Numbered from the stretch's first letter, positions 11,576 through 40,529 are shown. The stretch: DNA of 64,000 nucleotides from an uncultured Nitrososphaerales archaeon (GCA_963695855.1 CAVOHZ010000010.1:864001-928000), one strand, 5' to 3'. Made by a program: numbers and translations. Notes: generated by a model from the letters alone, not told the origin.

Positions 11576-13422
11576 CTAACTTAAGTTACCAGTAAAAACA
11601 ATTATTGCGCCTCTTGACTCAAGAATGGGCAATAATATTATTGTTATTGCAGACCCTGCTTCCCATATTATTGCTATGTATACCCATATTATGTAAACAT
11701 ATAGAGAAAATGCGTATCCTGAAACATATAATGGTAATGCCCAAATAATAACAAGAATGAGGGTTAAAAAGAGCGCATATTTGTAGGTGAATCTTGCAGT
11801 ATTCTTTAAAAACTTTTCATTGCTGTCCTGTTCTATTATGTTTCTTTTCCTTTCGTCAGTAACAAAACTTCTTTGTTTGATTGTATTGAAATTGAGATTC
11901 TGTGGTTTTAATATCCTTATAGCTATAGAAATAATTCCGCCAGAGACAATTGACGTAATATTACCAATAAGAAGTGGTATATATTCTCAGGTCGAATGAA
12001 TTGAAATTTCTCCATAAATTGTGTAGGCAGTAAGTAACCAGGTACAAATTCCAAGGGATAGACCGGCTAGTGCGCCAGCAATTATGGCATTTTTATTTGT
12101 TTTTTTCCATACCAATGCTATAGATATTGGAATCACCGAAGATCCAATTATTATGCCCATAGTCAAGTACACATATTGAAGGCTCGATCCAATATGAAAG
12201 AGGACAGACACTAATACTCCAATTAAAACTCCAAACGCCATTATGGATATACGAGAAATTCTAATTAATTCTCTTCCTGAAGCTGATGGTTTTATATAGG
12301 TTCTGTAAATATCGTAAGTAGTTAACGACGATACTGCTATCATTTGTACTGATCCTGCAGATGTTACAGCAGTAAATACTGCAGTCAATATTAAGATTGC
12401 ACCTAGGTCACCTAATAATTCTGACGCTGCCGTTGGTGCTACCATCCCATATTCAATTTCCTGTGTTGTTAATGATATTCCTATTGAAATTGCAGCTAGA
12501 CCCAAGGAAGTAGCCAATGTAAACGGGATCGCAAACCATACCAAAACAACAATTAAAAAACCACGAATAGCAGACTTCGGCCTGGAGGCAATTGTTCTTT
12601 GTCAATAAGTCTGATCAATAAATACACTTACAAAATTTCCTACGATGTTAATTATACCAAAAGTTAACGCTCCAATCGTGGCTAATGTAAGATAAGACCC
12701 TTGAGCATTGCCTTCCACAGGATCAGTTAATGCTACCTGTGTTAATTTGTTATACATACCTTCAATACCACCGATCTCTGGATTAATAAAATATATTGAA
12801 ATAACAAAAATCAATACTACACAAAAAATAAATGCAGTATTCAGATAATCAGCAAAAAATGTGGCTTTCAATCCTCCAAAAATCCTATAAATAATTACTC
12901 CGATGGGAATCAAAAATGTTGCAATGGTCATATCGACTCCAGTCAAGGCATTAACCACTGCTGCCCCTCCAAGGATCAACATTGTAGTTATGATTATGTT
13001 GGTGATAAGAGCAAAAAAAAGAAACACTTTATGTGCTTTGTATCCAAACCTAGCAAAAATCATTCTAGGAGATGTGTGTGAATAAGGAGCTTTTCTTTTT
13101 AATTCGATTGCTAAAATAGCAAAAAGAACAACTTGAATACTTTCTCCTGCAGCATACCAGAATAAACCACCTATTCCAAATTCATATGTGACTGTCGAGG
13201 ATTGAAGTAATGTTGCAGCAAGTCCATGCCGATACTACCTATGAAGCAATTAATCCTGATTTAACATTTCTTCCGGCTGTTGAAAACGATTCAAAGGTTT
13301 TTTTGGTTCCAAGCCATTTTGTTTCAGCCTTGACTAAAACATTACTATTATCGCCATAGTTTTACCAACTCCAAGTAAAGTAAAGTAAAGTAACCAATCT
13401 CTTGGGTTAAGATCTCTTGCAT
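11576..13422 (-). pseudogene. DUR3-like sodium:solute (urea) symporter pseudogene
   Basis: Fragments TAGRNVKSGLIAS*VVSAWT, WYAAG, DQTY*QRTIASRP and WFAIPF; in-frame TGA at 12602 and 11987, TAG near 13240, frameshifts near 13220 and 13340-13390. Confidence 0.85.
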
Positions 13423-15188: not shown

Positions 15189-16079
15189 TCAATGTTCATG
15201 TCTGTGATCGTCCTTATGAACATGGAGATGAGAGTGTTTTTTATCTCCATGAAAATGTCTGTGACGTAATCCTTTAAGATATACGTAGAAGAGTGATATT
15301 CCAAATCCAGATGCACCGAACAAAACTATCGTTGCACCTGAAGGAGAATCAATATAAAAACTAGTATACATTCCTAAAAATGCAGTACTGATTCCTATAA
15401 TAGAAGATAAAAGTAACATCTTAAAAAAATTATTTGTAAGCAGTCTTGCAGAAGCAGCTGGTGCTATAATTGCAACAGCAAGAAGTGTAACGCCAATAGA
15501 ATTCATTGAAGATATAACTACAGATGCAAGAACAAGGGAAAATAAAATGTCTACGCGATCTGTATTTATACCATAAACTTTTGCAGTTTCATTATCAAAA
15601 ATAGTAAATAGTAGCCTTTTTTGAAAGAAGAAGATAAATACGATTGTAATAATTGTTACTACAGAAATTATCATAAAATCAAAGTCAGTTACAGCTAATA
15701 TGTTTCCAAATAACATAGCTTCGAAATTTTTAATTGGGCTGTGTCCTGTATTCATTAACAGAACTCCAGCTGCAAAACCAGCAGTAGTAACTATACCAAT
15801 TACCGCATCTGCTTTTATTTTATATCTTTTATTTATCTCTGTTATTGCTATTGCTGAAAGAAATCCCCATAAGGTTGCTCCAATATAAAAGTTAAGACCA
15901 ATTAGGTAGCTGCTCACAGCTCCTCCAAAAACAGCATGAGATAAACCATGTCCTATGTAGCTCATTCCTCTAAGAACAACGTACACCCCCAATAACCCAC
16001 AAATTGATCCTAACAATATAGACACAATAATCCCACGTGTAAAAAATTCATACTGGAAAGGCTGCAGTAAAAAATCCAT
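15189..16079 (-). CDS. Metal ABC transporter permease (ZnuB/MntB family) with His-rich C-terminus
   Basis: GVYVVLRGMSYIGHGLSHA, LFGNIL and PAASAR; tail HRHFHGDKKHSHLHVHKDDHRHEH. Confidence 0.9.
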   Translation of the reverse strand: MDFLLQPFQYEFFTRGIIVSILLGSICGLLGVYVVLRGMSYIGHGLSHAVFGGAVSSYLIGLNFYIGATLWGFLSAIAITEINKRYKIKADAVIGIVTTAGFAAGVLLMNTGHSPIKNFEAMLFGNILAVTDFDFMIISVVTIITIVFIFFFQKRLLFTIFDNETAKVYGINTDRVDILFSLVLASVVISSMNSIGVTLLAVAIIAPAASARLLTNNFFKMLLLSSIIGISTAFLGMYTSFYIDSPSGATIVLFGASGFGISLFYVYLKGLRHRHFHGDKKHSHLHVHKDDHRHEH

Positions 16080-16098
16080 TTATATTTTTCTCCTCACA

Positions 16099-16842
16099 CT
16101 AATTACTTTTTGTTATACCATAAGTTCTATGAATTACATTTTCAGACAATACGTTATTTGGATATCCTTGAGATATTAACTCTTTGTTCAAACATACTAC
16201 CCAGGGTAACTTCCTAGCCACACCATCAATATCGTGTGTAGTCATTATGATAGTAATTCCCTTATTGTTCAGCTCGGTTAATGTTTGTACAAGATTTTCC
16301 CTTGACATGGGATCTAGTCCAGAGGTCGGTTCATCTAAAATCAATATATCGGGATTATGAATCAAAGCTCTTGCTAAAAATGCACGTTTTTGTTCTCCTC
16401 CTGATAATTCTCTTATTTGTCTATCCGAATAAGCATCTAATTCGAGGTCATGCAGGATGGAATCTATATCTTCTTTTGTTCTACTATTTATCCATGGAAA
16501 ACAACCGGAGTTGTTCCAAATACCCATAGCTACTAATTCTCTTACTGTAACAGGAAAGTCCCATTCTACACTTTCGACCTGTGGAGAGTAGCCTATAGTA
16601 GGAAATGTAACCCCATTATGTTTTGAATTCTTTTCAAACATGATTGTTCCATTCCATGGTCGAATTAATCCTAAAATCAATTTCAGTAAAGTGGTCTTTC
16701 CTGCACCGCTAGGACCCAGTAAACCCACAAAACTACCTTTTAAAAAATCTAATGAAATGCCCTCGATTATTGGATCATGGAATTTATATCCAAATGATAA
16801 ATTTCTTATTGTTATTATACTAGGTATATTATTGGAAGCCAT
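16099..16842 (-). CDS. Metal ABC transporter ATPase
   Basis: GPSGAGKT, LSGGE, LILDEPT and THD. Confidence 0.92.
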   Translation of the reverse strand: MASNNIPSIITIRNLSFGYKFHDPIIEGISLDFLKGSFVGLLGPSGAGKTTLLKLILGLIRPWNGTIMFEKNSKHNGVTFPTIGYSPQVESVEWDFPVTVRELVAMGIWNNSGCFPWINSRTKEDIDSILHDLELDAYSDRQIRELSGGEQKRAFLARALIHNPDILILDEPTSGLDPMSRENLVQTLTELNNKGITIIMTTHDIDGVARKLPWVVCLNKELISQGYPNNVLSENVIHRTYGITKSN

Positions 16843-16922
16843 TTTCTAGGTTATGCCTTCTTTAACATCCAATCAGAATAACCTTTTACAGTTGTCAATT
16901 CTTTTATATCCCAGATTTCAAC

Positions 16923-17924
16923 CTACAGTAAGTCCTTTTCAGCGATTTGCTTTAAAGGCTCTATATTTCCTCCTAGAGGTAGTACCATATTTCTAATATT
17001 TTCCAACATCATTCCTATATACGAATGATTAGGATCTCCTTCTTTTCCAGGTAAATCATCATCACTCAGCGTTTCTACTATCGTTACATTAGCTTCTTTG
17101 GCTATCTGATCTATTATATTAGTAGGAAAAATTTCAGATGCAAATAATGCTGGAATATTCTCAGTACGAATTTGGTCGATCAATCTCGCAATATCTCGGG
17201 CAGAAGGTTCACCAAAGTCAGAAGGTTGTATTGTTCCAATTACAGTCATCCCGTACCTTGGAGCAAAATATGCCCAAGAATCGTGATATGTAAGCAATTT
17301 TCGGTTTTCTTGGGGTATTGTGTCCACAGATTTTCTTATACCCTCATCAAGTTCTTTAAGTAGTTCATTATATCTTTGATAATTTGAGATATAATATTTA
17401 GAATTGTTTGGGTCTAGCTCTATTAATTTATCCGTTGTGATATTTGCAAATTTCATGGCATATTCTACGTTCAACCATAGATGTGGATTAGGATCTCCTT
17501 TTTCTTTTGGAAAACTGAAATCGAAAATCCAGTCATCTTTTGTTACGGTGTTATCTGCTAGCTTTACCAATTGTATTTTGGGATTTTTTGCAATAATGTT
17601 TTTTGCAATATTCTCTATACTTGTTTCAAGATTCAGACCGTCTATGACTATGAGATCGGCATTGCCTATTTTTATTGCATCGGAAGGAACTGGTTCAAAT
17701 GTATGAGAATTTACACCTTCAGGAACCAGACCAACTAGGTTTATTCTTTCTCCGCCGATATTTTTCACAATGTCCGTTATCGGTGCAACTGATGTTACTA
17801 AATTCAATTTTTTCTTGCCTATATCTGAAACTTCTATTTGTTGGCCCAAAACATAGTTGGAAAAAATAAGAATGATCGAGATCAAATGAATAAAGGCAAT
17901 TCCAATACCTGATGATCTATTCAT
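16923..17924 (-). CDS. Metal ABC substrate-binding protein (TroA/ZnuA, cluster A-I)
   Basis: SHTFEP, NPHLWL, YHDSWAYF and LSDD ligand motifs; signal peptide. Confidence 0.9.
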   Translation of the reverse strand: MNRSSGIGIAFIHLISIILIFSNYVLGQQIEVSDIGKKKLNLVTSVAPITDIVKNIGGERINLVGLVPEGVNSHTFEPVPSDAIKIGNADLIVIDGLNLETSIENIAKNIIAKNPKIQLVKLADNTVTKDDWIFDFSFPKEKGDPNPHLWLNVEYAMKFANITTDKLIELDPNNSKYYISNYQRYNELLKELDEGIRKSVDTIPQENRKLLTYHDSWAYFAPRYGMTVIGTIQPSDFGEPSARDIARLIDQIRTENIPALFASEIFPTNIIDQIAKEANVTIVETLSDDDLPGKEGDPNHSYIGMMLENIRNMVLPLGGNIEPLKQIAEKDLL

Positions 17925-18192: not shown

Positions 18193-18645
18193 TTATTTAA
18201 TGCCAACATAATGCATCTTTATACTTTTTATACCTCTGTTCTCAGAGATAACTTTCATAAAACTTTTCATTCTTCTTATTTTTCCTCTTAGAATGATCGT
18301 TTCAAGACAATTATCGTGATCCAAGTGTAAATGTGTAGTGGTTACGATTACATCATTATATTCATGCTGACTCTTTATCGATTCTCTATCATTACCGAAG
18401 AGATGATTATCGTATAAAACTACTAATGCACCTGCGCCTTCTTGAACTTCTTTTTGTTCCCATTCATTATTATTAATAAATTCATAAAGTGCTTTTTGAA
18501 TTGCTTTTGATCTATCTGAAAACCCTGCATTATTCATGGATTTATCAAATTGATCAAGTAAAGTAGGAGATAATGAAATGCTAATTCTAGCAACCTGATC
18601 TTTCTTATTACCTTCTTTTTTGTTTTTGTGCAAGTTCTTACGCAA
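18193..18645 (-). CDS. nikR: Nickel-responsive regulator NikR
   Basis: RHH domain RISISL..LLDQFD..GFSDRSKAI; Ni site QH...HLHLDHDNCLE. Confidence 0.9.
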   Translation of the reverse strand: MRKNLHKNKKEGNKKDQVARISISLSPTLLDQFDKSMNNAGFSDRSKAIQKALYEFINNNEWEQKEVQEGAGALVVLYDNHLFGNDRESIKSQHEYNDVIVTTTHLHLDHDNCLETIILRGKIRRMKSFMKVISENRGIKSIKMHYVGIK

Positions 18646-19076: not shown

Positions 19077-20192
19077 ATGGGAGTAGCAGATTTTGTGTCC
19101 GGTAATCCGGGATTGGACTTCTTTTATATTCTGTTTAATGGAATTTCTGAAGTTCCACTCTTCAGTTCTCCGGTCACTGGTATCCTGATACTAATTGGAG
19201 TATTTATCGCGTCAAGAAATGCTGGAATAATGATGGTAATTTCTGGTCTAATAGGTGCAGGGATGGCTATATTGCTAGGCGCTCCATATGGACTTGTTGC
19301 ATTCGGTCTTTTTGGTTATAACTCTATACTCACTGGTATGGCTTTTTGGTCTGGACCTTTCGTTAAATCTAACAAGGCAACATTCTTCATATCGATATTT
19401 GGTGCAGCTGTTACGGCAGTAGTCTGGAATGCAATGGGTCATCTGATGGGAGACATGTTTGTTCTACATGGTTTAGCTGAATCTTGGGCAATTCCTGGCT
19501 TTACGTCATCATTCATCTTTACGACTTGGACAATAATGTATGCCACTAAAAGATTTGGACATGATATTTGGCCTGAACCGGCACCCGCGGCACATGAACA
19601 GTTGATAAAAGGTAGTGGAAACCCCGTTCTGGTGCAGGAAGAGAATTTCATATGGACAGCAGGAGAATTTATAAAATCAACGTTAAAAGGTGTTTCCCAG
19701 GTTACATTTGTAGAAAACTGGAAGACTGGAATCTTTTGGGTGGTTGGCCTTACGTTAGCGTTTGAATTGGCACCATTTATAACTGGCCAAGATAGACCTT
19801 GGTGGACAAATGGGTACACCGCACAATGGAATGAATTTTCTCCGCTTTATTTGGGTGGCTTGATGGCGCTTGTTGGTTCTGCAGTTGGAGCTGGAATGGC
19901 AATATTGACAAAATTGCCAACAGGCGAGATAAGAGCAGGTCTACATGGGTTTAACCAAGTATTGGTAATGATTGCTCTCACCAGTTTTCTGCCTCTTACG
20001 CCACAATCTTTCTTTATTGCATTACTTGCCACAGTATCCTGCGGTTTTGTGATGCCGGCGATGCAACGATTCTTTGGAATGTGGGGATTACCAGCATTAA
20101 CAGGTCCGTTCGTTTTCACTGCATGGGTGTTCTTACTAGCGATATCTGGTTTCTCAAATATACCTGCTGGTATCGGCTGGTCACGACCATAG
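19077..20192 (+). CDS. Urea transporter (UT/Yut family channel)
   Basis: Two repeats: GISEV/GVSQV, GLFGYN/GLHGFN and LPALTGPFV. Confidence 0.9.
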   Translation: MGVADFVSGNPGLDFFYILFNGISEVPLFSSPVTGILILIGVFIASRNAGIMMVISGLIGAGMAILLGAPYGLVAFGLFGYNSILTGMAFWSGPFVKSNKATFFISIFGAAVTAVVWNAMGHLMGDMFVLHGLAESWAIPGFTSSFIFTTWTIMYATKRFGHDIWPEPAPAAHEQLIKGSGNPVLVQEENFIWTAGEFIKSTLKGVSQVTFVENWKTGIFWVVGLTLAFELAPFITGQDRPWWTNGYTAQWNEFSPLYLGGLMALVGSAVGAGMAILTKLPTGEIRAGLHGFNQVLVMIALTSFLPLTPQSFFIALLATVSCGFVMPAMQRFFGMWGLPALTGPFVFTAWVFLLAISGFSNIPAGIGWSRP

Positions 20193-20229: not shown

Positions 20230-20820
20230 GTGAAAAAAATGAACATACAGGAATTTAATCAATTTTTGAAAATTACAAGGGAAGGAAGAGAGAATTCTGA
20301 TATCCAAAAAATCAAGATGTTTATAAATTGGTGCAATAAAAACAACTACGAAGAAATAATTCTAAGACTTAGTTCCGAGAAAGATGCAGGTTTAGGAGAT
20401 AACCGCATAATAGACTTTACTACAAAACGAATTATTATTACCAAAAAAAGTTTTATGAAAAAATTTCTTGATATTGGTTATGTAGCTGGGATGGGTCCAT
20501 TTCCATACATAATATTATCCGAAAAAAAATACACATCAAAAATAAAGGATTCAGCAAAAGTAGACGTCAGAAAAATTATGAACAAATCAGATTCAGAATA
20601 TTCGATAGATTATGATTTAGTAAATGAAGTTATTGTAAGCCAAGGCTCTAGTTCTGTTGTTAGAAATATGTTTGGCTCATTTATAACAAAAAATTACTTG
20701 ACTATAATTGCGGATCAGAGAAGGTATGAGTATATTTTGCCAGCTAAGAAGAATGGTGATTTTTATAGAATGACTCATTGGCTTCAGGTTCTTCCAGTAA
20801 AGGTTTCAGTCGTATATTGA
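20230..20820 (+). CDS. Hypothetical protein between urea channel and ureA (possible PH-like fold)
   Basis: 196-aa ORF co-oriented between ut and ureA; FTTKRIII strand plus a short hydrophobic hairpin. Confidence 0.65.
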   Translation: MKKMNIQEFNQFLKITREGRENSDIQKIKMFINWCNKNNYEEIILRLSSEKDAGLGDNRIIDFTTKRIIITKKSFMKKFLDIGYVAGMGPFPYIILSEKKYTSKIKDSAKVDVRKIMNKSDSEYSIDYDLVNEVIVSQGSSSVVRNMFGSFITKNYLTIIADQRRYEYILPAKKNGDFYRMTHWLQVLPVKVSVVY

Positions 20821-20917: not shown

Positions 20918-21220
20918 ATGATGTTAGTTCCACGTGAAGTGGATAAAATGATGATTTGGACCGCAGCGCAAATTGCTGAAGGCCGTAAAAAAAGGGGAAT
21001 AAAACTCAATCATCCGGAAACTGTTGCATATATAGCGAACTATGTAGTTGAGGGCGCAAGAGAAGGAAAAAGTGTGGCAGAATTAATGAAATCTGCTAGG
21101 GAGGTTCTAACAAGGAATGATGTTATGGAAGGGGTACCAGAACTGATTCATACTGTTCAGGTTGAAGCTACTTTTCCAGATGGTACCAAGTTAGTTACCG
21201 TTCATGATCCAGTTCAATAG
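20918..21220 (+). CDS. ureA: Urease gamma subunit
   Basis: PREVDK, KLNHPE and [17 protein letters not shown]. Confidence 0.97.
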
Positions 21221-21290
21221 GAGTGAAAAAAATGGTTAGAAATTTTGAAAAAAATATAATAAAGAAAAGTAAGGAGGCTTTTAAATCGAA

Positions 21291-21665
21291 ATGATTCCAG
21301 GCGAGTATATTTTGTCTTCGGAGCCTGTAATCTGTAATCCAAATTATAAAACTGTCAAGGTTACTGTGAAGAATACTGGTGATAGGGCATGCCAGATAGG
21401 ATCTCATACACACTTTTTTGAAGTAAATAGGGCTCTAGATTTTCCAAGAGAACAAACATATGGATACAGATTAAACATACCTGCTGGCACTTCAATTAGA
21501 TTTGAACCGGGTGATTCACGAGAAGTAGAGTTATGTGAATTGGGTGGAAAACGAATTATATATGGATTTAACGGTCTGACGATGGGGGGTCTCAATTCCT
21601 CTGTGATAAAAGATGCTGCCATGGAAAAAGCGACGAAACTTGGGTACCGTGGGATGAGCAAATAA
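21291..21665 (+). CDS. ureB: Urease beta subunit
   Basis: MIPGEY, NTGDR..QIGSHTHFFEVN and RLNIPAGTSIRFEPG; SD AAGGAGG upstream. Confidence 0.97.
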   Translation: MIPGEYILSSEPVICNPNYKTVKVTVKNTGDRACQIGSHTHFFEVNRALDFPREQTYGYRLNIPAGTSIRFEPGDSREVELCELGGKRIIYGFNGLTMGGLNSSVIKDAAMEKATKLGYRGMSK

Positions 21666-21687
21666 AACTCAAGGAGCATGAATTAAA

Positions 21688-23415
21688 ATGGTTTTGAAAA
21701 TAACTAGAAAACAATATACTGACCTCTTTGGACCGTCAAAAGGTGACAAAATAAGACTTGCAGATACTGACATAATTATTGAAGTTGAAAAGGACTTGAT
21801 CTCCCAAGGAGATGAATGTGTCTTTGGTGGAGGCAAAACGATAAGAGATGGACTGGCGCAAGCATCAGGTATTACCAATGCAAACGGTGCTTTGGACCTT
21901 GTCATAACAAATGCCGTAGTTTTAGATCCTATACTGGGGATTGTAAAGGCAGACATTGGTATCAAGGATGGAAAGATAGCAGGAATAGGAAATTCAGGTA
22001 ACCCATATACTATGGACCATGTTAATACGAACATGATTGTCTCAGCATGTACAGAGGCAACTGCGGGTGAACATACAATTTGTACTCCTGGTCACTGGGA
22101 TACACACGTACACATGATCTCTCCACAACAATACATGGATGCAATTAGCAACGGAATCACTACTATGATAGGGGGTGGAACTGGACCTGCAGATGGAACA
22201 AATGCAACAACATGCACACCAGGGTCCTTCAATATTAGCAGGATGATGGAGAGTGTAGAGGATATCCCAGTAAATTGGGGTTTCTTGGGCAAAGGAAATG
22301 ATTCACATCCATCACTTGCCACACAGATAGAACAAATTGAAGCTGGGGCATGTGGATTAAAAGATCATGAGGACTGGGGAACAACTGCTGCAGTTTTAGA
22401 TGCATCTCTTAAGGCAGTAGACATGACTGATACACAATTAGCTATACATACCGATTCAATAAATGAATGTGGTTACGTTGAAGACACAATTAATGCGATA
22501 GATGGTAGGACACTCCATACATATCATACTGAGGGTGCAGGTGGTGGACATGCTCCAGATATTATGAAAATCGCAGGTGAGCAGTTTGCACTCCCCTCAT
22601 CAACTAATCCAACTAGACCATATACTGTGAATACGGTTGATGAACACCTTGATATGCTGATGTTTTGTCATCACCTCAATCCAGCAGTACCCGAGGATGT
22701 GGCTTTTGCAGAGTCAAGAATCAGAGCAGAAACAATTGCTGCAGAAGATGTATTGCATGATGAGGGAGTGTTGAGCATGTATTCATCTGATAGCCAAGCT
22801 ATGGGCAGAATTGGCGAAGTTGTAATCAGGGCATGGCAAACTGCTGACAAGATGAAGAAAATGAAAGGAAGATTGACAGAAGAAACAGGAGACAATGATA
22901 ATCTTAGAGCTAAAAGGTATATTGCAAAGACTACCATCAATCCTGCTATCACGCATGGTGCAGCTGATATCCTTGGATCTCTAGAAGTAGGAAAATATGC
23001 AGATATCGTTATGTATCAAACACCATTCTTTGCAGCCAAGCCAAAAATGATTTTTAAAGGTGGCTTCATTGCTTGGTCAATCATGGGTGATCCTAATGCG
23101 TCCATCCCAACGCCTGAACCTGTCTATTATAGGCCAATGTTTGGTGCTATGGGTAAGGCGGTAAAAAGGACGTCCTTGACTTTGTCATCAAAGGCAGCCG
23201 TAAACCTTGGAGTGAGAGAAAAACTAGGATTAGAAAAGGTTCTACATCCTGTACACAATTGCAGGAACATTGGCAAAAAAGATATGGTCTGGAACGATAA
23301 AACTCCAGAGATTACGATAGATCCTGAGACATACGAGGTAAAACTGGACGGAAAAATAGCTACAGTTGACCCTGCAAAAGAATTATCCCTAGCACAAAGA
23401 TACTTCATGGCATAA
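21688..23415 (+). CDS. ureC: Urease alpha subunit
   Basis: [36 protein letters not shown] and SSDSQAMGR. Confidence 0.98.
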
Positions 23416-23500
23416 GAGATAAACTATACCGACATCTACTATTTTTTATTTTCATTTTCTTTTTTATCGAGATATATACCTCATAGTAGGATAATATTTT

Positions 23501-25057
23501 ATGTCTAATCCAAATTATGGAGTTTGGAGACCAATTGCAGAAAACGTAGAGTTTAATGCTCTTGAATCTAATTCACAAGCAGTAATGGCTGTTGCAGAAA
23601 CAGTCAGAACAACTTTAGGTCCAAAAGGTCTCGATAAACTCTTGATAGATCAAGCTATGAATCGACACGTTTCAAACGATGGTGTTACCATTTTACTCTC
23701 TTTAAGGGCCATACATCCAGTTGCAAGAATGATAGTCGAAATTGCAGAAAGACAAGAACAGCTAGTCGGTGACGGTACAACTACTGCAGTTGTAATGGCT
23801 TCTGAAATGATAAAAGAAGGGAAGAGACTAGTGAAGGAACTAGGAGTTCATCCAACCAAAGTAGTGGAAGGTATAGATAACGGTGTTAAACAAGCATGTA
23901 AACTTTTAGAAAAACAAGCAAAGAGTATATCATTGAATGATGACGAGCTTGAACAAGTAATAAGAACTTCTCTCAATTCTAAATTAGATGGTGCAAATTT
24001 ATCTACATTGGTTATCAACTCCATTAGAACCATTGGAGAAAATTCTGTCTATAACTCATCATTTGATTTTGGTAAATCAATTAAAGTGATAAGAAAAACA
24101 AACGTGTCTGACACAGTATTCAATGGTGTTGTCTTGGAAAGAAAAAGACTCGATACAGAGATGCCATTAAAAATTGATAAACCTAAGATAATGATAGTAA
24201 AACTAGACTTAAAACCAGTTAAAGAATCATGGTTGAAAGAAAATAATCGTTATGAAGAAATACTGACCATGGAAAATGATAGACTTTCAAAGTCTAAAAA
24301 GATAGTTGATGAAATTGTGTCTACTGGAGCCAACACACTTTTGATAGCCTCTCCAGAAATAGATGAGGTTATAGAAAATCTTTTAGTGTCTAAAAAAATT
24401 TTTGCTGTCAGGATCTCTTCTGATGAAATTGAATTTCTGTCTCGATATCTTGGAACAAGGCCTGTGAGAATGATAGATGATCTACAAGGGGACAGTATCA
24501 TTGGAAATGCTGGCTGCATTCAAGAAAATGAAGATGAGGGATTAATTTACCTTGAAAATGGTTCTGAAAAAAATATTGTTTCCATAATAGTATCAGGAAC
24601 TACTAAAGAGACATCCCTTGAGAGGTGGAGATCAGTAATAGATGGAGTTAATGCTGCTGAAGCCGCCCTTAATAAAGGTGTTGTAGCTGGAGGTGGAGCA
24701 GCAGAATTACATGTTATTGAAAAGTTAAAAGGTTTGAGGATGAAAGGCCTAGAGCAGGTAGGAGTTGAGGTAGTAGCGTCAGCACTTGAAAGCATAATGA
24801 GACAAATTTTAACAAATGCTGGTTTTAATGGTCTAGAAAAAGTTATGGCTGCAAAAGCATCAAAACAAAATATTGGTGTTGATATAGATAGTGGTGATCT
24901 AGTGGATATGTGTGAAAAGGGGATTATCGATCCTTTATTGGTTAAAATAATGGCCCTCGAAGCTGCTGGAGAAATTTCAAAATCTGTCCTTCGGATTGAT
25001 AGAAATCTTGCCGCCGAAGACCTAAGTCAACAGGCCGTTTCTGAAACAAGGAGGTAA
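23501..25057 (+). CDS. Divergent thermosome/TCP-1-like chaperonin inside the urease locus
   Basis: [32 protein letters not shown] and LRID. Confidence 0.92.
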
Positions 25058-25066
25058 AAGAGAGAA

Positions 25067-25459
25067 GTGCAAATTCGTCACTGTGTACAAGAAGATAATG
25101 TAAATGAACACATGATAATCAAGGATCCCACAAAAATAAGACACGTAGTTATTTTTGGAGGAAAGATAAAATCAATGTCAGGTTTTATTGATCCTGCTTC
25201 TCATCTTAATATTGATTATCCACTACACAAGGTAACAAAATGTGTTATTGCGAAGAAATTTGAGTTAGGTTCTGATATTCTTTTCTCTGATAACGGGTTT
25301 ATCTTTGCCTTGGTGATGTCTTCACATTTTGATAATTATGGATACCTAGACTATACAAAAAATCTTTCTGAAATGATTGAAAAAGTAAATAATCTTAAGA
25401 CTTCTAAATCAGTTAAAAAAGTATTGGAACAAGAAAATACAAGAGAGCAGGTTGAGTAA
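25067..25459 (+). CDS. Hypothetical His/Cys-containing protein between chaperonin and ureE
   Basis: 130-aa ORF, 9 bp after the chaperonin stop and 8 bp before ureE; GGAGGT upstream. Confidence 0.75.
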   Translation: MQIRHCVQEDNVNEHMIIKDPTKIRHVVIFGGKIKSMSGFIDPASHLNIDYPLHKVTKCVIAKKFELGSDILFSDNGFIFALVMSSHFDNYGYLDYTKNLSEMIEKVNNLKTSKSVKKVLEQENTREQVE

Positions 25460-25467
25460 TAAAAAAA

Positions 25468-25983
25468 ATGATAACTATCAATAATATAATTGGTAATTTA
25501 ACGAAAGACTTTAAATTAAAAGAAAAATATGAATTGATGCTTAGGAAAGGTAACTGTGAAAAAGTAAAAATCAATAGGTTAGAATCCCAAAGGCTCAGAA
25601 TGAGAAAGAATACAGACAAGGGATCTGATGTTATTTTTGTTTTTGACCATAATCCACAACTTCGACATGAGGATGTTGTATTTTCAGATGATGAGAAGAT
25701 GATTATTGTTGAATTGGAACCAGAATACGTCGGTATAATTACATTGAAAAATTATAATAATAACGAAGATATGTTTTCAATGTCGATAAAGATTGGTCAT
25801 ACACTGGGAAATTTACACAGACCAATTCAGGTAACAAAAAATCAAGTATATTTTCCATTACAAGCAGAGACAGAAATTGAAATGCTTACAAAACTCTTTT
25901 CATCATTCAGTCAATTTCTTGATATCAAAACTGATTATATGGTCTTTGAACCAGAAGAAGGACACCATATTCATGAACATTGA
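25468..25983 (+). CDS. ureE: Urease accessory protein UreE
   Basis: RLRMRKNTDKG, IGHTLGNLH and FEPE plus His tail HHIHEH. Confidence 0.92.
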   Translation: MITINNIIGNLTKDFKLKEKYELMLRKGNCEKVKINRLESQRLRMRKNTDKGSDVIFVFDHNPQLRHEDVVFSDDEKMIIVELEPEYVGIITLKNYNNNEDMFSMSIKIGHTLGNLHRPIQVTKNQVYFPLQAETEIEMLTKLFSSFSQFLDIKTDYMVFEPEEGHHIHEH

Positions 25984-26737
25984 TGCCATCGATCTTCAGT
26001 TAGAAGAGATAAGCATTATGCAGTTAGGGGACTCTTTTTTTCCAACGGGGATGTATACGACCTCAAGTGGATTGGAGTCTCTCTATTACAATAGAAAGAT
26101 AAAAGATAAACAAAAAATTTTAGAATTTATTTCCGTATCTCTGAAATATCAAATAGGTCCAGCAGACTGTACAGCACTCTCTAACGCTTATCATTTTGCT
26201 AAAATTTCAGATTTGCAAGGCGTAATAGAGATAGACAAATTACTTTTTTCTATGAAGTTAGTTAAGGAGATACGAGATGCTTCGACAAGGTCCGGAACAC
26301 AATTGTTAAGTTGTGTATCAAGTTTCGTTAATGAAAGTATTACCGACGATGTCGCAACAAATTTAATTCATGATAATATTCTTACTCCTGCCAAACTGGT
26401 TTCATCCTATTATAATGCGATAAAGAATAAAACTGCTCATGGTATTTATCCAGTTGCATTAGCGGTAGCGTCAAATGCATTAAACATAAGAAAAGAAAGG
26501 GCTTGTATGCTTTTATTGTACGGATTTACGGTAAGCATAGTAGGTGCGGCACTTAGATTGGGAATGTTACAACATTTTGAAGGACAGCAAATAATTCATT
26601 CTTTAAAACCAGTGATGATAGAGGTTATAAAAACAAATATTGATAGACCTTTTTCTCATATGTGGCAATTTTCTCCTGGAATCGATATTTTGCAGATTAC
26701 ACATGAGAGGATGGATTCAAAAATGTTTATTACATAA
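25973..26737 (+). CDS. ureF: Urease accessory protein UreF
   Basis: QLGDSFFPTG..SSGLE, AALRL and HERMDSKMFIT; start set to the ATG at 25973 overlapping the ureE end. Confidence 0.92.
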   Translation: MNIDAIDLQLEEISIMQLGDSFFPTGMYTTSSGLESLYYNRKIKDKQKILEFISVSLKYQIGPADCTALSNAYHFAKISDLQGVIEIDKLLFSMKLVKEIRDASTRSGTQLLSCVSSFVNESITDDVATNLIHDNILTPAKLVSSYYNAIKNKTAHGIYPVALAVASNALNIRKERACMLLLYGFTVSIVGAALRLGMLQHFEGQQIIHSLKPVMIEVIKTNIDRPFSHMWQFSPGIDILQITHERMDSKMFIT

Positions 26738-26758
26738 AATATTTATCATTTATTTGTT

Positions 26759-27424
26759 ATGACTGTTAAAAGAATTCCTCGAGTTGGTATCGGTGGACCT
26801 GTTGGATCAGGAAAAACAATGTTAATTGAACAATTTGTTCCTTTATTAAGTCAAAAAGGATATAAGACGGCAATTGTCTCCAACGATGTAGTATCGAAAA
26901 TAGATGCTGATCGGATGCGAAGAAACTTGGCATCCGAACAAGGACTACTACCAGAAAGTCTGGTAATAGGACTTGCTACAGGCGGATGTCCACATACTGC
27001 CATAAGGGAGGATCCTTCTATGAATATTTCTGTGGTTGAAGAAATAGAATCCAAACATAATGAAGATCTTGATTTGATAATCATTGAAAGCGGTGGTGAT
27101 AATATAACAACAACGTTTAGTCCTGCATTGGCTGATTACTTTATCTATATAATAGATGTCTCTAGTGGAGATAAATATCCCAGAAAACGTGGTCTTGGAA
27201 TAGAGAGTTGTGATCTTTTGGTGATTAATAAAATTGATCTTGCTCCACTTATAGGTGCAGATCTTAAAGTAATGGAAAATGATGCTATTATCGTCAGAAA
27301 AAACAAACCATTTCTATTTGTTAATTGTAAAACTGGTCAGGGAGTGAAAGAAGTTTCAGAACATATTATAAAAGATGTTTTGTTTGAGGCACCCCCAAAA
27401 ACTCTTCTAAAGAAAAACAATTAG
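26759..27424 (+). CDS. ureG: Urease accessory GTPase UreG
   Basis: GGPVGSGKT, GGCPHTAIRED, ESGGDN and INKIDLAP. Confidence 0.96.
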   Translation: MTVKRIPRVGIGGPVGSGKTMLIEQFVPLLSQKGYKTAIVSNDVVSKIDADRMRRNLASEQGLLPESLVIGLATGGCPHTAIREDPSMNISVVEEIESKHNEDLDLIIIESGGDNITTTFSPALADYFIYIIDVSSGDKYPRKRGLGIESCDLLVINKIDLAPLIGADLKVMENDAIIVRKNKPFLFVNCKTGQGVKEVSEHIIKDVLFEAPPKTLLKKNN

Positions 27425-27447
27425 ATAATGAAAGAGTTTACATAATT

Positions 27448-28383
27448 ATGATACCTCTTGATCTAGATTATTTCATCCCAAAGGATATTCCCAGAGAGGT
27501 TTTATCTTATGAAGCAGTTTTGACTCAACTAGGGGTAGGTAAAGCGGGAAAGCTTGGAACATTGATTTTGTCCCTTGAAAAGGATCAAAATCTAAATAGA
27601 ACAATAATAAGAGAACAGTACTGTAAAGTTCCTCTTTTTGTTCAACGTGCGCTATACCTTGAAGAAAGTCTGCCATCTATGGCATATATCTATATAATGT
27701 CTCCTTCTGGAGGAATTCTCCAAGGTGACCGGTATAGAATAGATATCAAGATAGGTGATAGTGCATTAGCTCATATGACCACCCAGGGAGCTACAAGACT
27801 TTATAGAATGGATAAAAACTATGCAACTCAGATAGTCAATATAACTTTGGATAGCAACAGTTATTTTGAATTTGTGCCCGACCAGATAATACCCTATAGG
27901 GATTCTAGGTTCTATCAATCTGTAACTTTGAATATTCATGAGGAGGCTACCATGATATATTCTGAAACAATAGTGCCAGGACGTATGGCTATGGGTGAAT
28001 ACTTTAATTATGATATTTGTTATTTAAAAATGATTGGAAAGAACCAAGAGGGCATATTACGATTTATTGATACTGCATTGTTACAACCCAAGAAAAATGA
28101 TCTAAAGATCCTTGGAATTCTTGAAGAATTTAATATGTTATGCAATACGTATATCCTCACACCACCCAGATATGTTGAGAAATTGAATGATAGTATAAAT
28201 GATAAAATATCTCTATTTCCAGAGGTCAGAGGTGGATGCTCTGTGATGCCTGATGAATCAGGAATAGCTATTAGAATCTTGGGAAACACAATAGATAGAT
28301 TAAAAGAGGTTACATATTCTATATTAGGGATGTGTAGACATGAAATCCTAAATGCGAAGTTTAGTGGAATTCGCAAAAACTAA
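27448..28383 (+). CDS. ureD: Urease accessory protein UreD
   Basis: SPSGGILQGD, TTQGATRLY, PDQIIPY and PGRMAMGE. Confidence 0.93.
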   Translation: MIPLDLDYFIPKDIPREVLSYEAVLTQLGVGKAGKLGTLILSLEKDQNLNRTIIREQYCKVPLFVQRALYLEESLPSMAYIYIMSPSGGILQGDRYRIDIKIGDSALAHMTTQGATRLYRMDKNYATQIVNITLDSNSYFEFVPDQIIPYRDSRFYQSVTLNIHEEATMIYSETIVPGRMAMGEYFNYDICYLKMIGKNQEGILRFIDTALLQPKKNDLKILGILEEFNMLCNTYILTPPRYVEKLNDSINDKISLFPEVRGGCSVMPDESGIAIRILGNTIDRLKEVTYSILGMCRHEILNAKFSGIRKN

Positions 28384-35259: not shown

Positions 35260-36136
35260 ATTTAAAAATTACCTGGAGAACCTTGAGTGTATTATATTAT
35301 GATCATATTGCTAAAAATGAGAAACTATCGGTCGTATTTAATACGTACAGTAGATTTATTCTGCATAAAACAAGAAAAAGAGAATACAAAAGACAAAATT
35401 TGTTCTTATATATCTAATTGTTAGACAAGTTCTAAGTTACATATATTGTAACAGAAACAAAATGATTAGTAAAATAGTTCTTTTCATCAACATTCTTAAT
35501 ATAAAATGGTGCCAAAATATTCATTTTTACCCGTTGGTTAAGCTTTTTCATTGTGAACATTTTATACCTTATATTTTTGACATTACATTTCATGTTGAAA
35601 CGATGTCTTTTGTAATATTCTTTAGATAGTTATGGTAATGAGCGATACTTTATGTAGACATTTTAAGCTCTGTTAAATTAAGTAAAAATTACAAATTTAA
35701 TTGAAAAAACCTACTAAAATTGAGTGTAGAACATAAAAGATAAACAAAACATATCTTATATTCTATACTTAACTTAACAGAGCCACATTTTAGCATGAAT
35801 CTATTCTCGTTCAAACCAAATCTTTTAATTATACGTAAGTCAAGAATTTCCTTTTCTATAACATTTGTTACTTCTGCAGACTGTTTATTGTGCGCTTTTA
35901 TATTTTCATGCTGCAAACCATTTGTTCGATTCTCAAGGTACCTGTTTTTCCACTTGTAATGTGTCATTCAAGTTATTAGGTATCTAGTGCATTACCTACA
36001 GTACCTTCAGTCCACGGTTTCTGATGAATTAGATTAAATTTCGTTTGTAATTCTATTTTGTATACAATTACTATCAGACTAGAAAGTGTTACCTATGTTA
36101 CTAAATGAAATTGTAACCATCTATACAAGTACAACA
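35260..36136 (-). mobile_element. Degenerate IS481 copy related to 10450-11499
   Basis: Colinear similarity to the intact element, including the terminus ...AAGTACAACA (36136); many stops and frameshifts; left boundary approximate. Confidence 0.8.
35666..35784. mobile_element. 119-bp IS6-type MITE with 8-bp target duplication
   Basis: TIRs AGCTCTGTTAAATTAAG / GGCTCTGTTAAGTTAAG match the IS6 end at 46414-46430; ACATTTTA on both flanks (35658-35665, 35785-35792). Confidence 0.85.
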
Positions 36137-36699
36137 AGTAATTATTAGTTTTAAGAAATTTATAGCATCTTAATTCATATATAGAAATAGACATGACATA
36201 GAACTGGGTAACGACGATTAAATTTGTGATTATAGTAAGAATACTGAAGGATGATGACTAAAATTTTACAGGTAAGAGTATTATACTATAGTACAGCTGT
36301 TAGTTTAACAGAGCATAAACAGCGCTGAAACCGGTATGCAGGATTTTAACAATACGATATCCTTGAGAAAATCAAACAAACTTCTTACATGTAACCTTTT
36401 AGAATCTATCAATATAGTCAATATCTGAGTGTGTCAGATTTATTTTACATGATATAATGTCTCAACATTGTAGCCTCATCCAGTATGTTGAAGCAAACGA
36501 TTAGAGCTTGATTTTGATTAGCTAGCTCAAATTATAGGAATTTACTCGATAATCTAACTATGTTGTCATTTAGTTGGATAATCCTACAGAATTATACTCT
36601 AATAACTTTACAATTTTGAACTATTAATTGATTAATTTATTTATTGTTAGTGCCTATTGATAGAATTCTATATTAATAACTAAATTATTACAATATTTT

Positions 36700-37275
36700 A
36701 TGAAACAGAAGGTAAGAGTAATGGTTGTTTCACTAACTTTAATGATTGGAATAATGGCTGTTGTGGATTATTCACTTGAGACAGCTTTTTCTCAGGAGGA
36801 CCCAGCGAAAGAAAAAGCATTACAGGACCAGGTAGCCAGCGCCTTTAATTATGTGCATAAGGCAGACCTTAATAGAGCATCTTTAACTCTATTACTAAAT
36901 GGCATCAGTCTTATTCAAAATGATACATTACTAATATATGATTCAACTCCTTATGCAAGCAAGGGACATATATCTCTTAATTTACCATGTAACCCAGAAG
37001 AACCTAATAAACCGATGTTTCAGGTACTAATCGGTCTTGCTCCAAAGGTTTTTCCCTTGTACCTGGGATATTTAGAACAAGTTTCAAACCCGCCTAGAAG
37101 TTGTTTATTTCATGGACAATTTGGATTTGGAGATCCTGTAACAGATGTGGCTCTTCACTACTCAGGTGATGGAGAGATTAAATTTCTAGGTCCACATACT
37201 ATTACAATAACTGTACATGAATCATACATTCCAAGTCAAGAGCAGTTAAAACTGAAACAACATTTAGCTCCTTAA
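36700..37275 (+). CDS. Exported hypothetical protein
   Basis: Signal peptide; 191-aa ORF with two Cys and several His. Confidence 0.7.
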   Translation: MKQKVRVMVVSLTLMIGIMAVVDYSLETAFSQEDPAKEKALQDQVASAFNYVHKADLNRASLTLLLNGISLIQNDTLLIYDSTPYASKGHISLNLPCNPEEPNKPMFQVLIGLAPKVFPLYLGYLEQVSNPPRSCLFHGQFGFGDPVTDVALHYSGDGEIKFLGPHTITITVHESYIPSQEQLKLKQHLAP

Positions 37276-37543
37276 TTTTTTTTTAACATATATATGATGG
37301 TACGTTTTAATAAAAAATTAATTTGCAAGTTTTTATACCTTGAAAATTAAAAATAAATTGAATACTTTCAATACTTTTTTATGAGAAAATAATTGTAGGA
37401 AGATTTTCTTATTTCGCTAACATCTTACATAACAATTGTTCTTAATTTAGTAAGAGCAATAATCTTCATGTTTTTACATATTAACAAAGTAAATTGAATG
37501 TCTAGAAAACTCACTATGTTTGGATTTTACTGCCAACTATATT

Positions 37544-38947
37544 CTAATCATTAGCATGCAAGGAATAATTTTTGCCAGTCAAGTCAAGGAGACATCTTTC
37601 TATTGGTTTCTTTAAATCTTCTACTTCCTTCTTATTTTTTTCCAGCTCCATTTGCAATTCTTTATGTGAGGCCTCTTTTGCAAACAGTTCTTGGGAAAGA
37701 TAAGATTTTTGTTCCTGCATGTCTCTTAATTTTGAAAAAATAGTGAGATCTGGATTGTTCTGTAATGTATGTAATTTTTTATTCAGGTTTTCTTCTCGAC
37801 TTTTAAATTCATTTAATGAATGGAGAATGTTGTCAATATAAGTAATTATTTTACCAGAATCTTTGACATTAATTTTTCCCTTTACCATTGAAGTCCTAAC
37901 ATCTGTAATGAGATTAACATAGTGAGTAATGTCTTGAGAGAACATTTCCCAAGGCTTTTCAGTCATTACTTGGAATTTATGAATAACTGATTTATTCATT
38001 CCATAAGAATATTTGTTGAATGCTCTGCTGACTCTACTAAAACTATTAATTAATTCTTTATGGAAATCCTTTTTCTCTTTCTCAACTAATGTCAGCGTTT
38101 GTCTTGTTTTCTGTGCATTATGATATTTTTCAGAGTTTACCAACAAATTTATTTCAGATTCAACTTTTTTTATATTCGATCTCAAATCGTCAATATTAGC
38201 TCTCTTATCATCGACAAGTGATTCCATAGAACTTATCATTTCTTTTTTATCCGCAATGACATTTAATCCATCTATACAGGAATTCAAAAAATTTAATTCA
38301 TCGTCATAGAGATAAATTTCCCTTTTGCATTCATGGGAAATATTTGAAATATTCTTAAATTCGTTTTCTAGTTTTTCGGCATACTTTCTAATAAAGAAAT
38401 TGAAAACTTTCTTATGGGAAGAACTTAGCTCTGAAAACCTATGGACCATAGAATCTAGGTGCTGATGAAAATCTTTGATATCTTGAAAAGATTCAGGAAC
38501 AGTAGGAAATGATGATATTTCTTTTTTTATCGATGATATAACCATTCTTTTGGAATTAATAAGTAGGGACTCAAAGCTACGTTCTTGGACATCTATTTTA
38601 GCTATTTCTAGATCCCTGGCAATATTCTTTATATTGTTCATATATTGTAACGACTGAAAATGGAGTGGTTTAATTTTTTCTGCTAATTGCTTTATTTTAC
38701 CATCTCGAGATCTTTGAAGAATATCTTTAGTATCAAATGATGTAATTTGAATATCCTCAATTGAATTATCTTTAAATTTGTTTATATTATATGAATTTCT
38801 CCCTTTTTTATCAATATGGGGTTTCTTCTTAAAAAAATCAAATAAAGGAGCCAATAAATATACTAATAATATCAATAAGAAAAATCTTTTTATTTTTCTA
38901 GTATGCGAAAATTCATAGTGAGTCCTAAAAATATTGAAACAAGTCAT
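37544..38947 (-). CDS. Long coiled-coil hypothetical protein (start uncertain)
   Basis: 467-aa ORF with heptad-rich K/E/L composition; no Walker motifs. Confidence 0.7.
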   Translation of the reverse strand: MTCFNIFRTHYEFSHTRKIKRFFLLILLVYLLAPLFDFFKKKPHIDKKGRNSYNINKFKDNSIEDIQITSFDTKDILQRSRDGKIKQLAEKIKPLHFQSLQYMNNIKNIARDLEIAKIDVQERSFESLLINSKRMVISSIKKEISSFPTVPESFQDIKDFHQHLDSMVHRFSELSSSHKKVFNFFIRKYAEKLENEFKNISNISHECKREIYLYDDELNFLNSCIDGLNVIADKKEMISSMESLVDDKRANIDDLRSNIKKVESEINLLVNSEKYHNAQKTRQTLTLVEKEKKDFHKELINSFSRVSRAFNKYSYGMNKSVIHKFQVMTEKPWEMFSQDITHYVNLITDVRTSMVKGKINVKDSGKIITYIDNILHSLNEFKSREENLNKKLHTLQNNPDLTIFSKLRDMQEQKSYLSQELFAKEASHKELQMELEKNKKEVEDLKKPIERCLLDLTGKNYSLHAND

Positions 38948-39019
38948 TTTTGTGTAAAAAAATGAAAAAAATGAAAGTACATCGGATTACCTTTATAGGA
39001 GATTTATAATGCTTGAATT

Positions 39020-39616
39020 TTGTTGATGAATAATAAAAAAGAAGATGACAATTCGAAAAATGGTATGATTTTTATATATATATCATTATCTATTTTGAGC
39101 GCCACAATAATAAGTGCAATATTCTCACGAGAAATTAATTATTATTTTTATGCAATGATATGGATTGGAAGTTTTTTGGTCTTTTTTTTGTTGTTCAGAA
39201 CTAGAATAATAGATTCAGTTAAAATTATCAAGACGAGGATAAAAAAGAGTACTGGATGGCCATTAACAATCAAAATCATAAATGGAATATGTTGGGCTGG
39301 TCCATTTTTCTTTGCAGCATTTATGCCTGTTATTCATGAATTTTTAATATTGTTGGGAATAGGATTAGGAAATATTTCCACTGCACTCATATTTTTAAAG
39401 TATAACAGACTCAAAAACAAGGATCAAATGATCGTTGGGTTAATTTGTTTAATATCTATCGTAATAATAATGGTGTTATATCAATATGATTTAATAGCGA
39501 AAGTACAAGGTGAATTTTTAGCAAGGATATTAATATCTATAGCTTATGGAATAGGAGGAGTATATAGCTTATTCTTTGGAGAAAAAGATACATATTCAAA
39601 TGACATACCACAGTAA
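39020..39616 (+). CDS. Integral membrane hypothetical protein
   Basis: About six hydrophobic segments. Confidence 0.7.
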   Translation: MLMNNKKEDDNSKNGMIFIYISLSILSATIISAIFSREINYYFYAMIWIGSFLVFFLLFRTRIIDSVKIIKTRIKKSTGWPLTIKIINGICWAGPFFFAAFMPVIHEFLILLGIGLGNISTALIFLKYNRLKNKDQMIVGLICLISIVIIMVLYQYDLIAKVQGEFLARILISIAYGIGGVYSLFFGEKDTYSNDIPQ

Positions 39617-40506: not shown

Positions 40507-40529
40507 TCTCATTTTTTTGTGTACTTTTT

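Follow-up and report, generated by a model that had tools for sequence, protein, structure and literature searches.

Background

Urease is the textbook example of a nickel enzyme, built with the help of four accessory proteins (UreD, UreE, UreF and UreG), and urea is a major substrate for the ammonia oxidizers of soil and sea. The subject of this report is cpnU, a chaperonin gene between ureC and ureE in the urease cluster of an uncultured Nitrososphaerales archaeon, within a 64,000-nt stretch of DNA (CAVOHZ010000010.1:864001-928000 of assembly GCA_963695855.1) that is called the window below and to which all coordinates refer unless another locus is named. In Helicobacter pylori, the chaperonin system HspA/HspB is likewise linked to urease activation; these proteins belong to group I, serve housekeeping functions and act via the histidine-rich tail of the GroES-type component, whereas CpnU resembles group II and group III chaperonins, has a predicted built-in lid, contains neither a histidine-rich segment nor a C-terminal run of histidines of the HspA kind, and is encoded inside the urease cluster. 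The group II thermosomes (such as Mm-cpn and the thermosome of T. acidophilum) share with CpnU the fold, the ATP motifs, the catalytic aspartate and the built-in helical lid, but CpnU has a shorter N-terminus, lid and nucleotide-sensing loop and no GGM tail, and it falls outside the thermosome clade. Non-canonical chaperonins of Thaumarchaeota that resemble Ch-CPN and group III are mentioned by An et al. (2017, PMC5635000), who define group III by absence of the nucleotide-sensing loop, which is six residues shorter and has arginine. The prototype of group III is Ch-CPN of Carboxydothermus hydrogenoformans, and the lineage nearest to CpnU in the trees is that of the bacterial thermosome-like chaperonins, which are similar in length (about 505-525 aa) and likewise lidded; those of group III are encoded in a dnaK operon, whereas cpnU lies between ureC and ureE and forms a clade of its own beside the bacterial clade.

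The association of a chaperonin with urease genes in ammonia-oxidizing archaea (AOA) has been known since 2018, when Abby et al. (PMC5797428) reported a homolog of Hsp60 (arCOG01257) in the urease loci of Nitrososphaerales and of Candidatus Nitrosocaldus cavascurensis. The authors propose that the Hsp60 homolog probably stabilizes urease, draw the analogy with Helicobacter, and suggest that the locus may have been acquired en bloc from bacteria. CpnU belongs to the same family, occupies the same position in the locus, is distinct from the conserved thermosomes and would have the same role; nothing essential differs from the published description, and the window contains a further ortholog. Added here are counts of linkage and co-occurrence, a small conserved partner protein (hyp130), the finding that cpnU is confined to a single lineage of UreC, relatives from clusters whose flanks are of bacterial type, evidence of selection, and conservation of a promoter. 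The literature on AOA urease in combination with chaperonin, thermosome or Hsp60, and on arCOG01257, yielded no experimental test of the association. Transcripts of urease genes and of a thermosome rose together in N. viennensis exposed to 3,4-dimethylpyrazole phosphate (PMC13674081), the text of which does not say which thermosome it was.

The urease cluster and its chaperonin

The interpretation preferred here, to which we assign a probability of roughly 70%, is that cpnU encodes a lidded chaperonin, driven by ATP, that serves specifically in the maturation of a single urease lineage, and that it is the first gene of a cpnU-hyp130-ureEFGD unit with its own TATA-like promoter, located past the terminator of ureABC. 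The features on which this interpretation depends are as follows.

20918-21220, + strand: ureA (Pfam Urease_gamma)
21291-21665, + strand: ureB (Pfam Urease_beta)
21688-23415, + strand: ureC (Pfam Urease_alpha and Amidohydro_1); ureABC are of the 'type-1' lineage
23441-23466, + strand: T-rich tract 3' of the ureC stop codon, seen in the sequence
23470-23478, + strand: TATA-like box AGATATATA, which contains ATATATA (23472-23478) and lies 23-31 nt 5' of the cpnU ATG
23501-25057, + strand: cpnU, 518-aa Cpn60/TCP-1 chaperonin (PF00118, 354.3 bits against a cut-off of 34.3)
25067-25459, + strand: hyp130, 130-aa protein, with a GTG start 9 bp past the cpnU stop codon
25468-25983, + strand: ureE (Pfam UreE_N and UreE_C), with its stop codon at 25981-25983
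25973-26737, + strand: ureF (PF01730), for which the ATG at 25973 was checked
26759-27424, + strand: ureG, GTPase (PF02492, cobW/HypB/UreG)
27448-28383, + strand: ureD (PF01774)

The first-pass annotation of this DNA had placed a full-length TCP-1-like chaperonin between ureC and ureE, preceded by the T-rich tract and the ATATATA motif and followed, as far as ureD, by gaps of 9 bp and 8 bp, an 11-bp overlap of ureE with ureF, and gaps of 21 bp and 23 bp; the chaperonin and the upstream motifs are present as described, and the spacing is exact.

Linkage and co-occurrence with urease

One genome per species was scanned for relatives of cpnU; 114 were found, and the loci of the best 80 (70-98% identical to cpnU, from genomes titled Nitrososphaeraceae, Nitrososphaera, Nitrosopolaris and similar) were searched with 11 proteins of the window. 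The gene immediately 5' of cpnU is ureC in 69 of 71 testable loci, the gene immediately 3' is hyp130 in all of the 70 that could be tested, and ureE is downstream in 66/66; of 38 loci in which colinearity of the full set of 11 genes could be tested, 36 show it, the exceptions (L031 and L049) having no match to hyp196, a conserved gene located 5' of ureA. The arrangement of cpnU and the urease genes is thus kept far beyond chance. At two loci, L048 (1-816) and L057 (1-2463), an open reading frame (ORF) resembling uracil-DNA glycosylase, not ureABC, precedes cpnU-hyp130, and the TATA-like box is kept.

Co-inheritance of cpnU with urease was assessed across the class in a sample of 401 genomes, of which five are flagged as unpublished, and the resulting counts are taken over related genomes, not independent events. 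All 48 genomes with cpnU also possess ureC: the window genome, 44 of the 77 other sampled genomes of its own family (group f1), two of group f3, and G085 of group f17, which has one copy. An intact cpnU is present in none of the 223 ureC-negative genomes of the sample. The absence from urease-negative genomes that the first-pass annotation had set as a check is borne out, apart from one remnant in the ureC-negative, 98% complete genome G166: a chaperonin fragment corresponding to residues 220-449, which adjoins ureF (lacking a start and beginning at residue 35), ureG and ureD (L192:9575-12784), with no ureABC, hyp130 or ureE nearby. This locus is a decaying urease cluster, and the chaperonin is decaying along with it.

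No cpnU was found in the 224 sampled genomes of group f2 (Nitrosopumilaceae-like), where the best matches, about 33% identical, are thermosomes. The UreC proteins of the sample form two classes by identity to the window UreC: among the matches listed, the 44 UreC sequences with 82-100% identity are all from genomes that hold cpnU, and those listed from genomes without cpnU are at most 74% identical. UreC of the latter class is also present in a second ureABC set in G235, G244, G200 and G275. By this division, cpnU accompanies a single lineage of urease, the one whose UreC is at least 82% identical to that of the window.

Chaperonin lineage, structure and conservation

The match of CpnU to PF00118 is full-length (residues 31-501 align with profile positions 1-484 of 490), and it is the only Pfam match, with none to the families of UreD, UreE, UreF and UreG. 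The window genome (3.55 Mb, 11 contigs) has three PF00118 genes, of which two are thermosomes (642 and 618 bits) and the third is cpnU (354 bits), 32-33% identical to both. Two trees were made, one with FastTree from 175 sequences (those outside 450-620 aa and the pseudogene of L091 having been left out) and one with IQ-TREE (LG+C20+F+G4) from 60; both are unrooted, with no group I outgroup and no reference sequence of Ch-CPN, and the CpnU lineage and the bacterial-type lineage are both long-branched. In both trees, a long branch with support of 100 splits CpnU and the bacterial-type clade from every thermosome-like sequence, and the CpnU clade is sister to the bacterial-type clade (25 sequences in the first tree, 15 in the second), not nested within it. 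Six of 16 clusters that were looked up in the sister clade carry names, all of them bacterial (Thermoactinomyces, Peptococcaceae, Bacillota/Eremiobacterota, Maledivibacter, Vulcanimicrobiota, Gelria/Syntrophomonas). CpnU, as judged from these trees, represents a separate lineage nearest to the bacterial thermosome-like ('group III-like') chaperonins, and the earlier description of it as a paralog of the housekeeping thermosomes has to be given up.

An AlphaFold2 model of CpnU (mean predicted local distance difference test score, pLDDT, 80.6) adopts the three-domain fold of chaperonins and includes a helical protrusion (helices 242-246 and 251-274) that corresponds to a built-in lid. Foldseek matched the model to Mm-cpn, thermosome and the group III entry 5x9v with template modeling scores of 0.74-0.80, a range that covers both groups and does not discriminate between them. 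The lid of CpnU carries deletions relative to thermosomes, among them a deletion of three residues common to CpnU and the bacterial clade, and in the alignment both the N-terminal strand segment and the C-terminal GGM tail of thermosomes are missing from CpnU, as they are from the bacterial clade. The nucleotide-sensing loop of CpnU (SKL---DGANL) is three residues shorter than in the aligned thermosomes and keeps the lysine, whereas that of the bacterial clade (SR------ENEDI) is six residues shorter and has arginine for lysine; in this respect CpnU differs from group III as defined by An et al. (2017).

The motifs LGPxGLDK, NDGxT, GDGTT and GGG and the residue Asp381 are invariant in 27 family members, including relatives with identity as low as 38-44%, and so the ATPase motifs are intact; we take them, from work on Mm-cpn, to be the ATP-binding and catalytic positions, Asp381 being the catalytic residue. 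Ratios of nonsynonymous to synonymous substitution (dN/dS) were calculated by the Nei-Gojobori method against the two closest loci, and were 0.11 and 0.06 for cpnU, 0.05 and 0.04 for ureC, 0.13 and 0.10 for ureG, and 0.12 and 0.11 for ureE; those of hyp130 were 0.31 and 0.44, on few sites. The median identity of CpnU across the 80 loci (74.7%) exceeds those of UreD (58.9%), UreF (52.8%), UreE (47.6%) and also hyp130. Thus, cpnU is under purifying selection.

Probable promoter and transcription unit

The spacer between ureC and cpnU varies from 62 to 243 bp (median 114) in 73 distinct versions, in every one of which runs of T lead up to a TATA-like box. All 75 distinct 60-nt stretches upstream of cpnU hold an octamer that resembles a TATA box, compared to an average of 7.7 of 75 after shuffling, and the box starts at positions -28 to -53, mostly -30 to -34. 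No Shine-Dalgarno sequence precedes cpnU, and AGGAGG precedes hyp130, as expected for an internal gene of an operon. Archaeal TATA boxes usually lie at a set distance from the transcription start, and by that measure the location of the window box, 23-31 nt 5' of the ATG, fits a probably leaderless or short-leader cpnU mRNA. The T-rich tract at 23441-23466 is probably an oligo-T terminator of the ureABC transcript.

The genes of the cluster are present in environmental RNA libraries, namely in contigs that are 90-99% like the window and were assembled from two studies, with four metatranscriptome runs of soil or rhizosphere between them. The stretch from ureA to ureC (21192-23403) is covered by one contig, and contigs of three of the four runs end just 3' of ureC (at 23403, 23424 and 23429) with loose ends that are not genomic and that presumably represent sequencing adapter. 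Among the contigs listed, the junctions cpnU-hyp130 (24716-25154), hyp130-ureE (25292-25539) and ureG-ureD (27377-27650) are bridged and the junction ureC-cpnU is not. The depth of the contigs is lower over cpnU-ureD than over ureABC, but contig depth cannot rank genes and nothing is drawn from it. As a weak hint, the RNA contigs agree with the promoter interpretation. Because of the TATA-like box in 75 of 75 upstream stretches, the lack of a Shine-Dalgarno sequence before cpnU and its presence at hyp130, and the contig ends past ureC, it is very likely that cpnU heads its own transcription unit, cpnU-hyp130-ureEFGD, as the first-pass annotation had supposed. That the genes from cpnU to ureD are transcribed as a single mRNA is inferred.

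Distant relatives and rearranged clusters

Beyond the 80 loci, G085 possesses a 496-aa copy, about 40-42% identical to CpnU, that is convergent with adjoining ureE-F-G-D. The nearest representative of a 50%-identity cluster outside the AOA clade, P0124, is 42% identical to CpnU; a search with it yielded 14 metagenome loci (L112-L125; GC fraction 0.36-0.40) with copies that are 67-70% identical to P0124 and 42-44% identical to CpnU. In 12 of these 14 loci, the urease genes are directly upstream of the chaperonin (ureE-F-G-D-cpn), L121 and L125 being too short. The fullest loci read ureA-B-C, a hyp130 homolog, a gap, ureE-F-G-D and the chaperonin, and the hyp130 homolog (36-38% identical) follows ureC in all six loci that extend so far; the gene order has therefore been rearranged and the gene set kept. 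The genes that flank the cluster in L113 have a bacterial look: they encode a NarL-type two-component system (HAMP/HisKA_3 kinase and LuxR-type response regulator), an ABC ATPase, DUF1573 and a fusion of Amt with PII. A 69%-identical protein was found on a 5.1-Mb contig. A search of 400 sampled genomes of the phylum with the P0124-type chaperonin returned only genomes already known to hold cpnU, and the P0124 lineage is therefore outside that sample. These clusters suggest that the module as a whole was transferred between domains. That the gene set outlasts a change of order and, probably, of domain speaks more strongly for a shared function than any other observation here.

The same loci bear on a different explanation, by which cpnU and hyp130 would be passengers of a cluster transferred as a block, retained through linkage or as a general stress chaperone induced by nitrogen limitation, with no client specific to urease. 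CpnU does fall beside the thermosome-like chaperonins of bacteria, apart from the thermosomes of its host, acquisition en bloc is what Abby et al. propose, and 130 of the 178 urease-positive genomes do without cpnU. Passengers would be lost or would drift, however, whereas cpnU has dN/dS of 0.06-0.11 and ATPase motifs that are invariant down to about 40% identity, its gene set survives reordering, and outside urease-positive genomes there is no intact copy, that of G166 being truncated. The passenger explanation is considered improbable.

It would be more surprising still if the client of CpnU were some other product of the cluster or its regulon, such as the urea transporter, hyp196 or the metal transporter. 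The genes of the UT-type urea transporter and hyp196 are also conserved, by the same colinearity in 36 of 38 loci, but the rearranged clusters have no match to either, have the chaperonin after ureD, and have transporters of other types (SSF and ABC) nearby. Cytosolic chaperonins, moreover, do not usually fold integral membrane transporters.

Two further sets of relatives were noted. L084:2029-3519 and P0127 represent a sub-lineage of cpnU that has lost about 20 residues of the lid region and is nearly lidless; it still adjoins ureEFGD. P0126 and P0128, which are among the better-scoring relatives of CpnU, are 1047-1057 aa long and contain a tandem pair of chaperonin-like stretches; one of the two is named as being from a Freyarchaeota archaeon.

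The small partner protein hyp130

No Pfam family was found for hyp130, the best match being to DUF3067 (E 0.14). The N-terminus reads M-x-I-R-H-C-V-E-E in the aligned AOA orthologs, with valine for cysteine in the copies with bacterial-type flanks. R4, H5, C6, H26, H46, H54 and C59 are among the positions that are invariant in 35 AOA sequences, and when four copies from loci with bacterial-type flanks are added, R4, H5, H26, H46, H54 and C59 are still invariant. The AlphaFold2 model (pLDDT 87.4) consists of a small beta domain and a long C-terminal helix, and resembles no known fold in the PDB: the best Foldseek match has an E value of 2.8, and the best VIA-align wide match has a Z score of 2.2 and is mostly to the C-terminal helix. 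In a protein atlas, hyp130 matched unnamed or low-scoring clusters only. The family comprises 1194 proteins at E<=0.001, and the best 120 of these are unnamed or 'hypothetical' and have no Pfam domain. Prediction of a complex of CpnU with hyp130 gave a score of 0.00 in both runs, which is not evidence either way. On account of the invariant histidine and cysteine residues, our guess is that hyp130 may be a metal-handling or adaptor protein.

Those residues could also be accommodated by a nickel-handling or scaffold chamber, made of CpnU and hyp130, which would serve to store or supply nickel or to keep apo-urease open while the metal is inserted, in a manner akin to HspA. H5, H26, H46, H54 and C59 are invariant in hyp130, which accompanies CpnU-type chaperonins in AOA and also in the urease clusters with bacterial-type flanks; the other urease-associated chaperonin family, cpnH (described below), has a conserved tail with at least eight histidines; and the cluster is flanked by genes of NikR and of a metal ABC transporter. 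CpnU itself has no histidine-rich segment, however, and its conserved catalytic aspartate and phosphate-binding loops argue for the ATPase cycle of a foldase, while metal binding by hyp130 is only putative and its fold matches nothing known. A nickel chamber is accordingly judged unlikely.

Proposed role of CpnU

According to the dedicated-chaperonin interpretation, CpnU would form a ring complex like that of thermosomes, which would enclose a urease component and either fold it or hold it competent for assembly. The candidate clients are UreC (a 575-aa TIM barrel) or UreABC protomers, or else UreD, which is prone to aggregation. The folded component would then be passed to the nickel-insertion machinery of UreDFG and UreE, and hyp130, with its histidine and cysteine residues, would probably take part in this pathway too, whether by handling metal or as an adaptor. 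A bolder version, which we put forward tentatively and think doubtful, is that CpnU and hyp130 are the obligatory, hitherto unrecognized fifth and sixth urease accessory proteins of one lineage, the former a chaperonin specific for apo-urease or UreD and the latter a His/Cys metal or adaptor protein, and that the pair was passed along with the urease genes, as one module, from one domain to the other (bacteria and archaea). Should this urease lineage require both the chaperonin and its partner, the accepted scheme of urease maturation would be incomplete for these organisms, and the requirement would show which extra genes are needed for heterologous expression of this urease lineage; CpnU would also be among the few client-specific chaperonins of group II/III type in prokaryotes.

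Several points weigh against the dedicated-chaperonin interpretation. The ureC-positive genomes without cpnU (22 of group f1, 105 of group f2 and three of group f5, or 130/178) imply that archaeal urease in general can do without it; the tie to the urease cluster that the first-pass annotation proposed stands. The co-occurrence counts span related genomes and hence are not independent, and linkage alone does not separate folding from other urease-related roles. Because CpnU is without the N-terminal strand and the C-terminal tail of thermosomes, assembly into a ring is not to be assumed. The TATA octamer patterns were picked after the data had been inspected, and the RNA contigs are from related strains in soil, may hold DNA and cannot prove a single transcript.

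A second urease-associated chaperonin, cpnH

Another chaperonin paralog, cpnH, is located in or near urease clusters of the other UreC lineage (L088:2602-4299, - strand; L086:4264-5979, - strand; L089-L108). Like cpnU, it is tied to urease-positive genomes; unlike cpnU, it is a sister of thermosomes, has a histidine-rich tail and goes with the other UreC lineage. The proteins are 565-571 aa in length; identity is 47-48% between groups f1 and f2, 40-47% with thermosomes and 23-26% with CpnU, and in the IQ-TREE phylogeny they are sister to the thaumarchaeal thermosomes (support 96). All 22 copies with a readable C-terminus (those of 21 loci and of L088) end in a conserved tail with at least eight histidines, the copy of L091 being broken. 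The tail is ...NTHCHIDGTVHAH...HNHFEQEGLEQRQMHHYY in group f2, the type that has lost two catalytic aspartate positions, and ...THTHxDGTxHSH...HDHYFDKLGK.QRP.HHYY in group f1.

At E<=1e-135, cpnH was found in 95 of the 401 genomes; the window genome has no copy. In group f2, ureC is present in every one of the 67 holders, and the 119 genomes that lack ureC all lack cpnH as well; in G346 of group f1, cpnH adjoins decayed fragments of ureC. In some loci the gene adjoins ureEFGD or ureABC, but often it is unlinked from urease genes and accompanied by an ORF resembling the urease gamma subunit (PF00547, 33-40 bits), and in L088 a gene of the arginase family is also near. A role of cpnH dedicated to urease was considered and not adopted, as these arginase-family and urease-gamma-like neighbors are just as compatible with a link to a ureohydrolase module. 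If the client-specific role of CpnU and hyp130 is true, the separate recruitment of a histidine-tailed thermosome would make chaperonin-assisted maturation of nickel enzymes a general archaeal theme. Zhong et al. (2020, PMC7265257) noted such an additional thermosome close to the urease genes of a hadal metagenome-assembled genome and interpreted it as an adaptation to pressure, and a literature search found no paper that joins thermosome, urease and histidine-rich.

Neighboring genes in the window

The genes on the ureA side of the cluster are as follows.

15189-17924, - strand: ZnuABC-type metal ABC transporter (Pfam ABC-3, ABC_tran and ZnuA), comprising the permease (15189-16079), the ATPase (16099-16842) and the binding protein (16923-17924)
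18193-18645, - strand: NikR-type nickel-responsive regulator (PF08753 NikR_C, 77.7 bits), divergent from the genes of the urea transporter and urease
19077-20192, + strand: UT-type urea transporter (PF03253, 180 bits), the position of which is kept in related loci
20230-20820, + strand: hyp196, a conserved 196-aa protein encoded between the urea transporter and ureA

No Pfam family was found for hyp196 at E<=0.001; there is a weak match to the bacterial PH-domain family bPH_3 (E 0.025), and the protein is 30-92% identical among related loci. The ZnuABC-type transporter is a candidate for metal uptake, perhaps of nickel, and may be under the control of NikR; the adjoining nikR gene is the sole reason to propose specificity for nickel. 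The second urease set in L086 also has an adjoining gene for NikR.

Three other observations concern the rest of the window. A gene for a sodium:solute symporter (SSF) is split into two ORFs (11987-12544 and 12602-13063, - strand) beside an rve-type integrase or insertion sequence (10479-11429), and is probably a disrupted transporter gene. An ORF at 5018-5584 (- strand) encodes a DnaJ domain joined to a ferredoxin domain of the 4Fe-4S type and may be of the DnaJ-Fer type, which is reportedly, to go by the title of one paper in the reference list of PMC4084955, a protein that was transferred to Thaumarchaeota. Finally, a region at 35689-46423 that consists of ORFs without Pfam families and is bounded by DDE transposases (42662-43561 and 45761-46423) is possibly mobile or recently gained.

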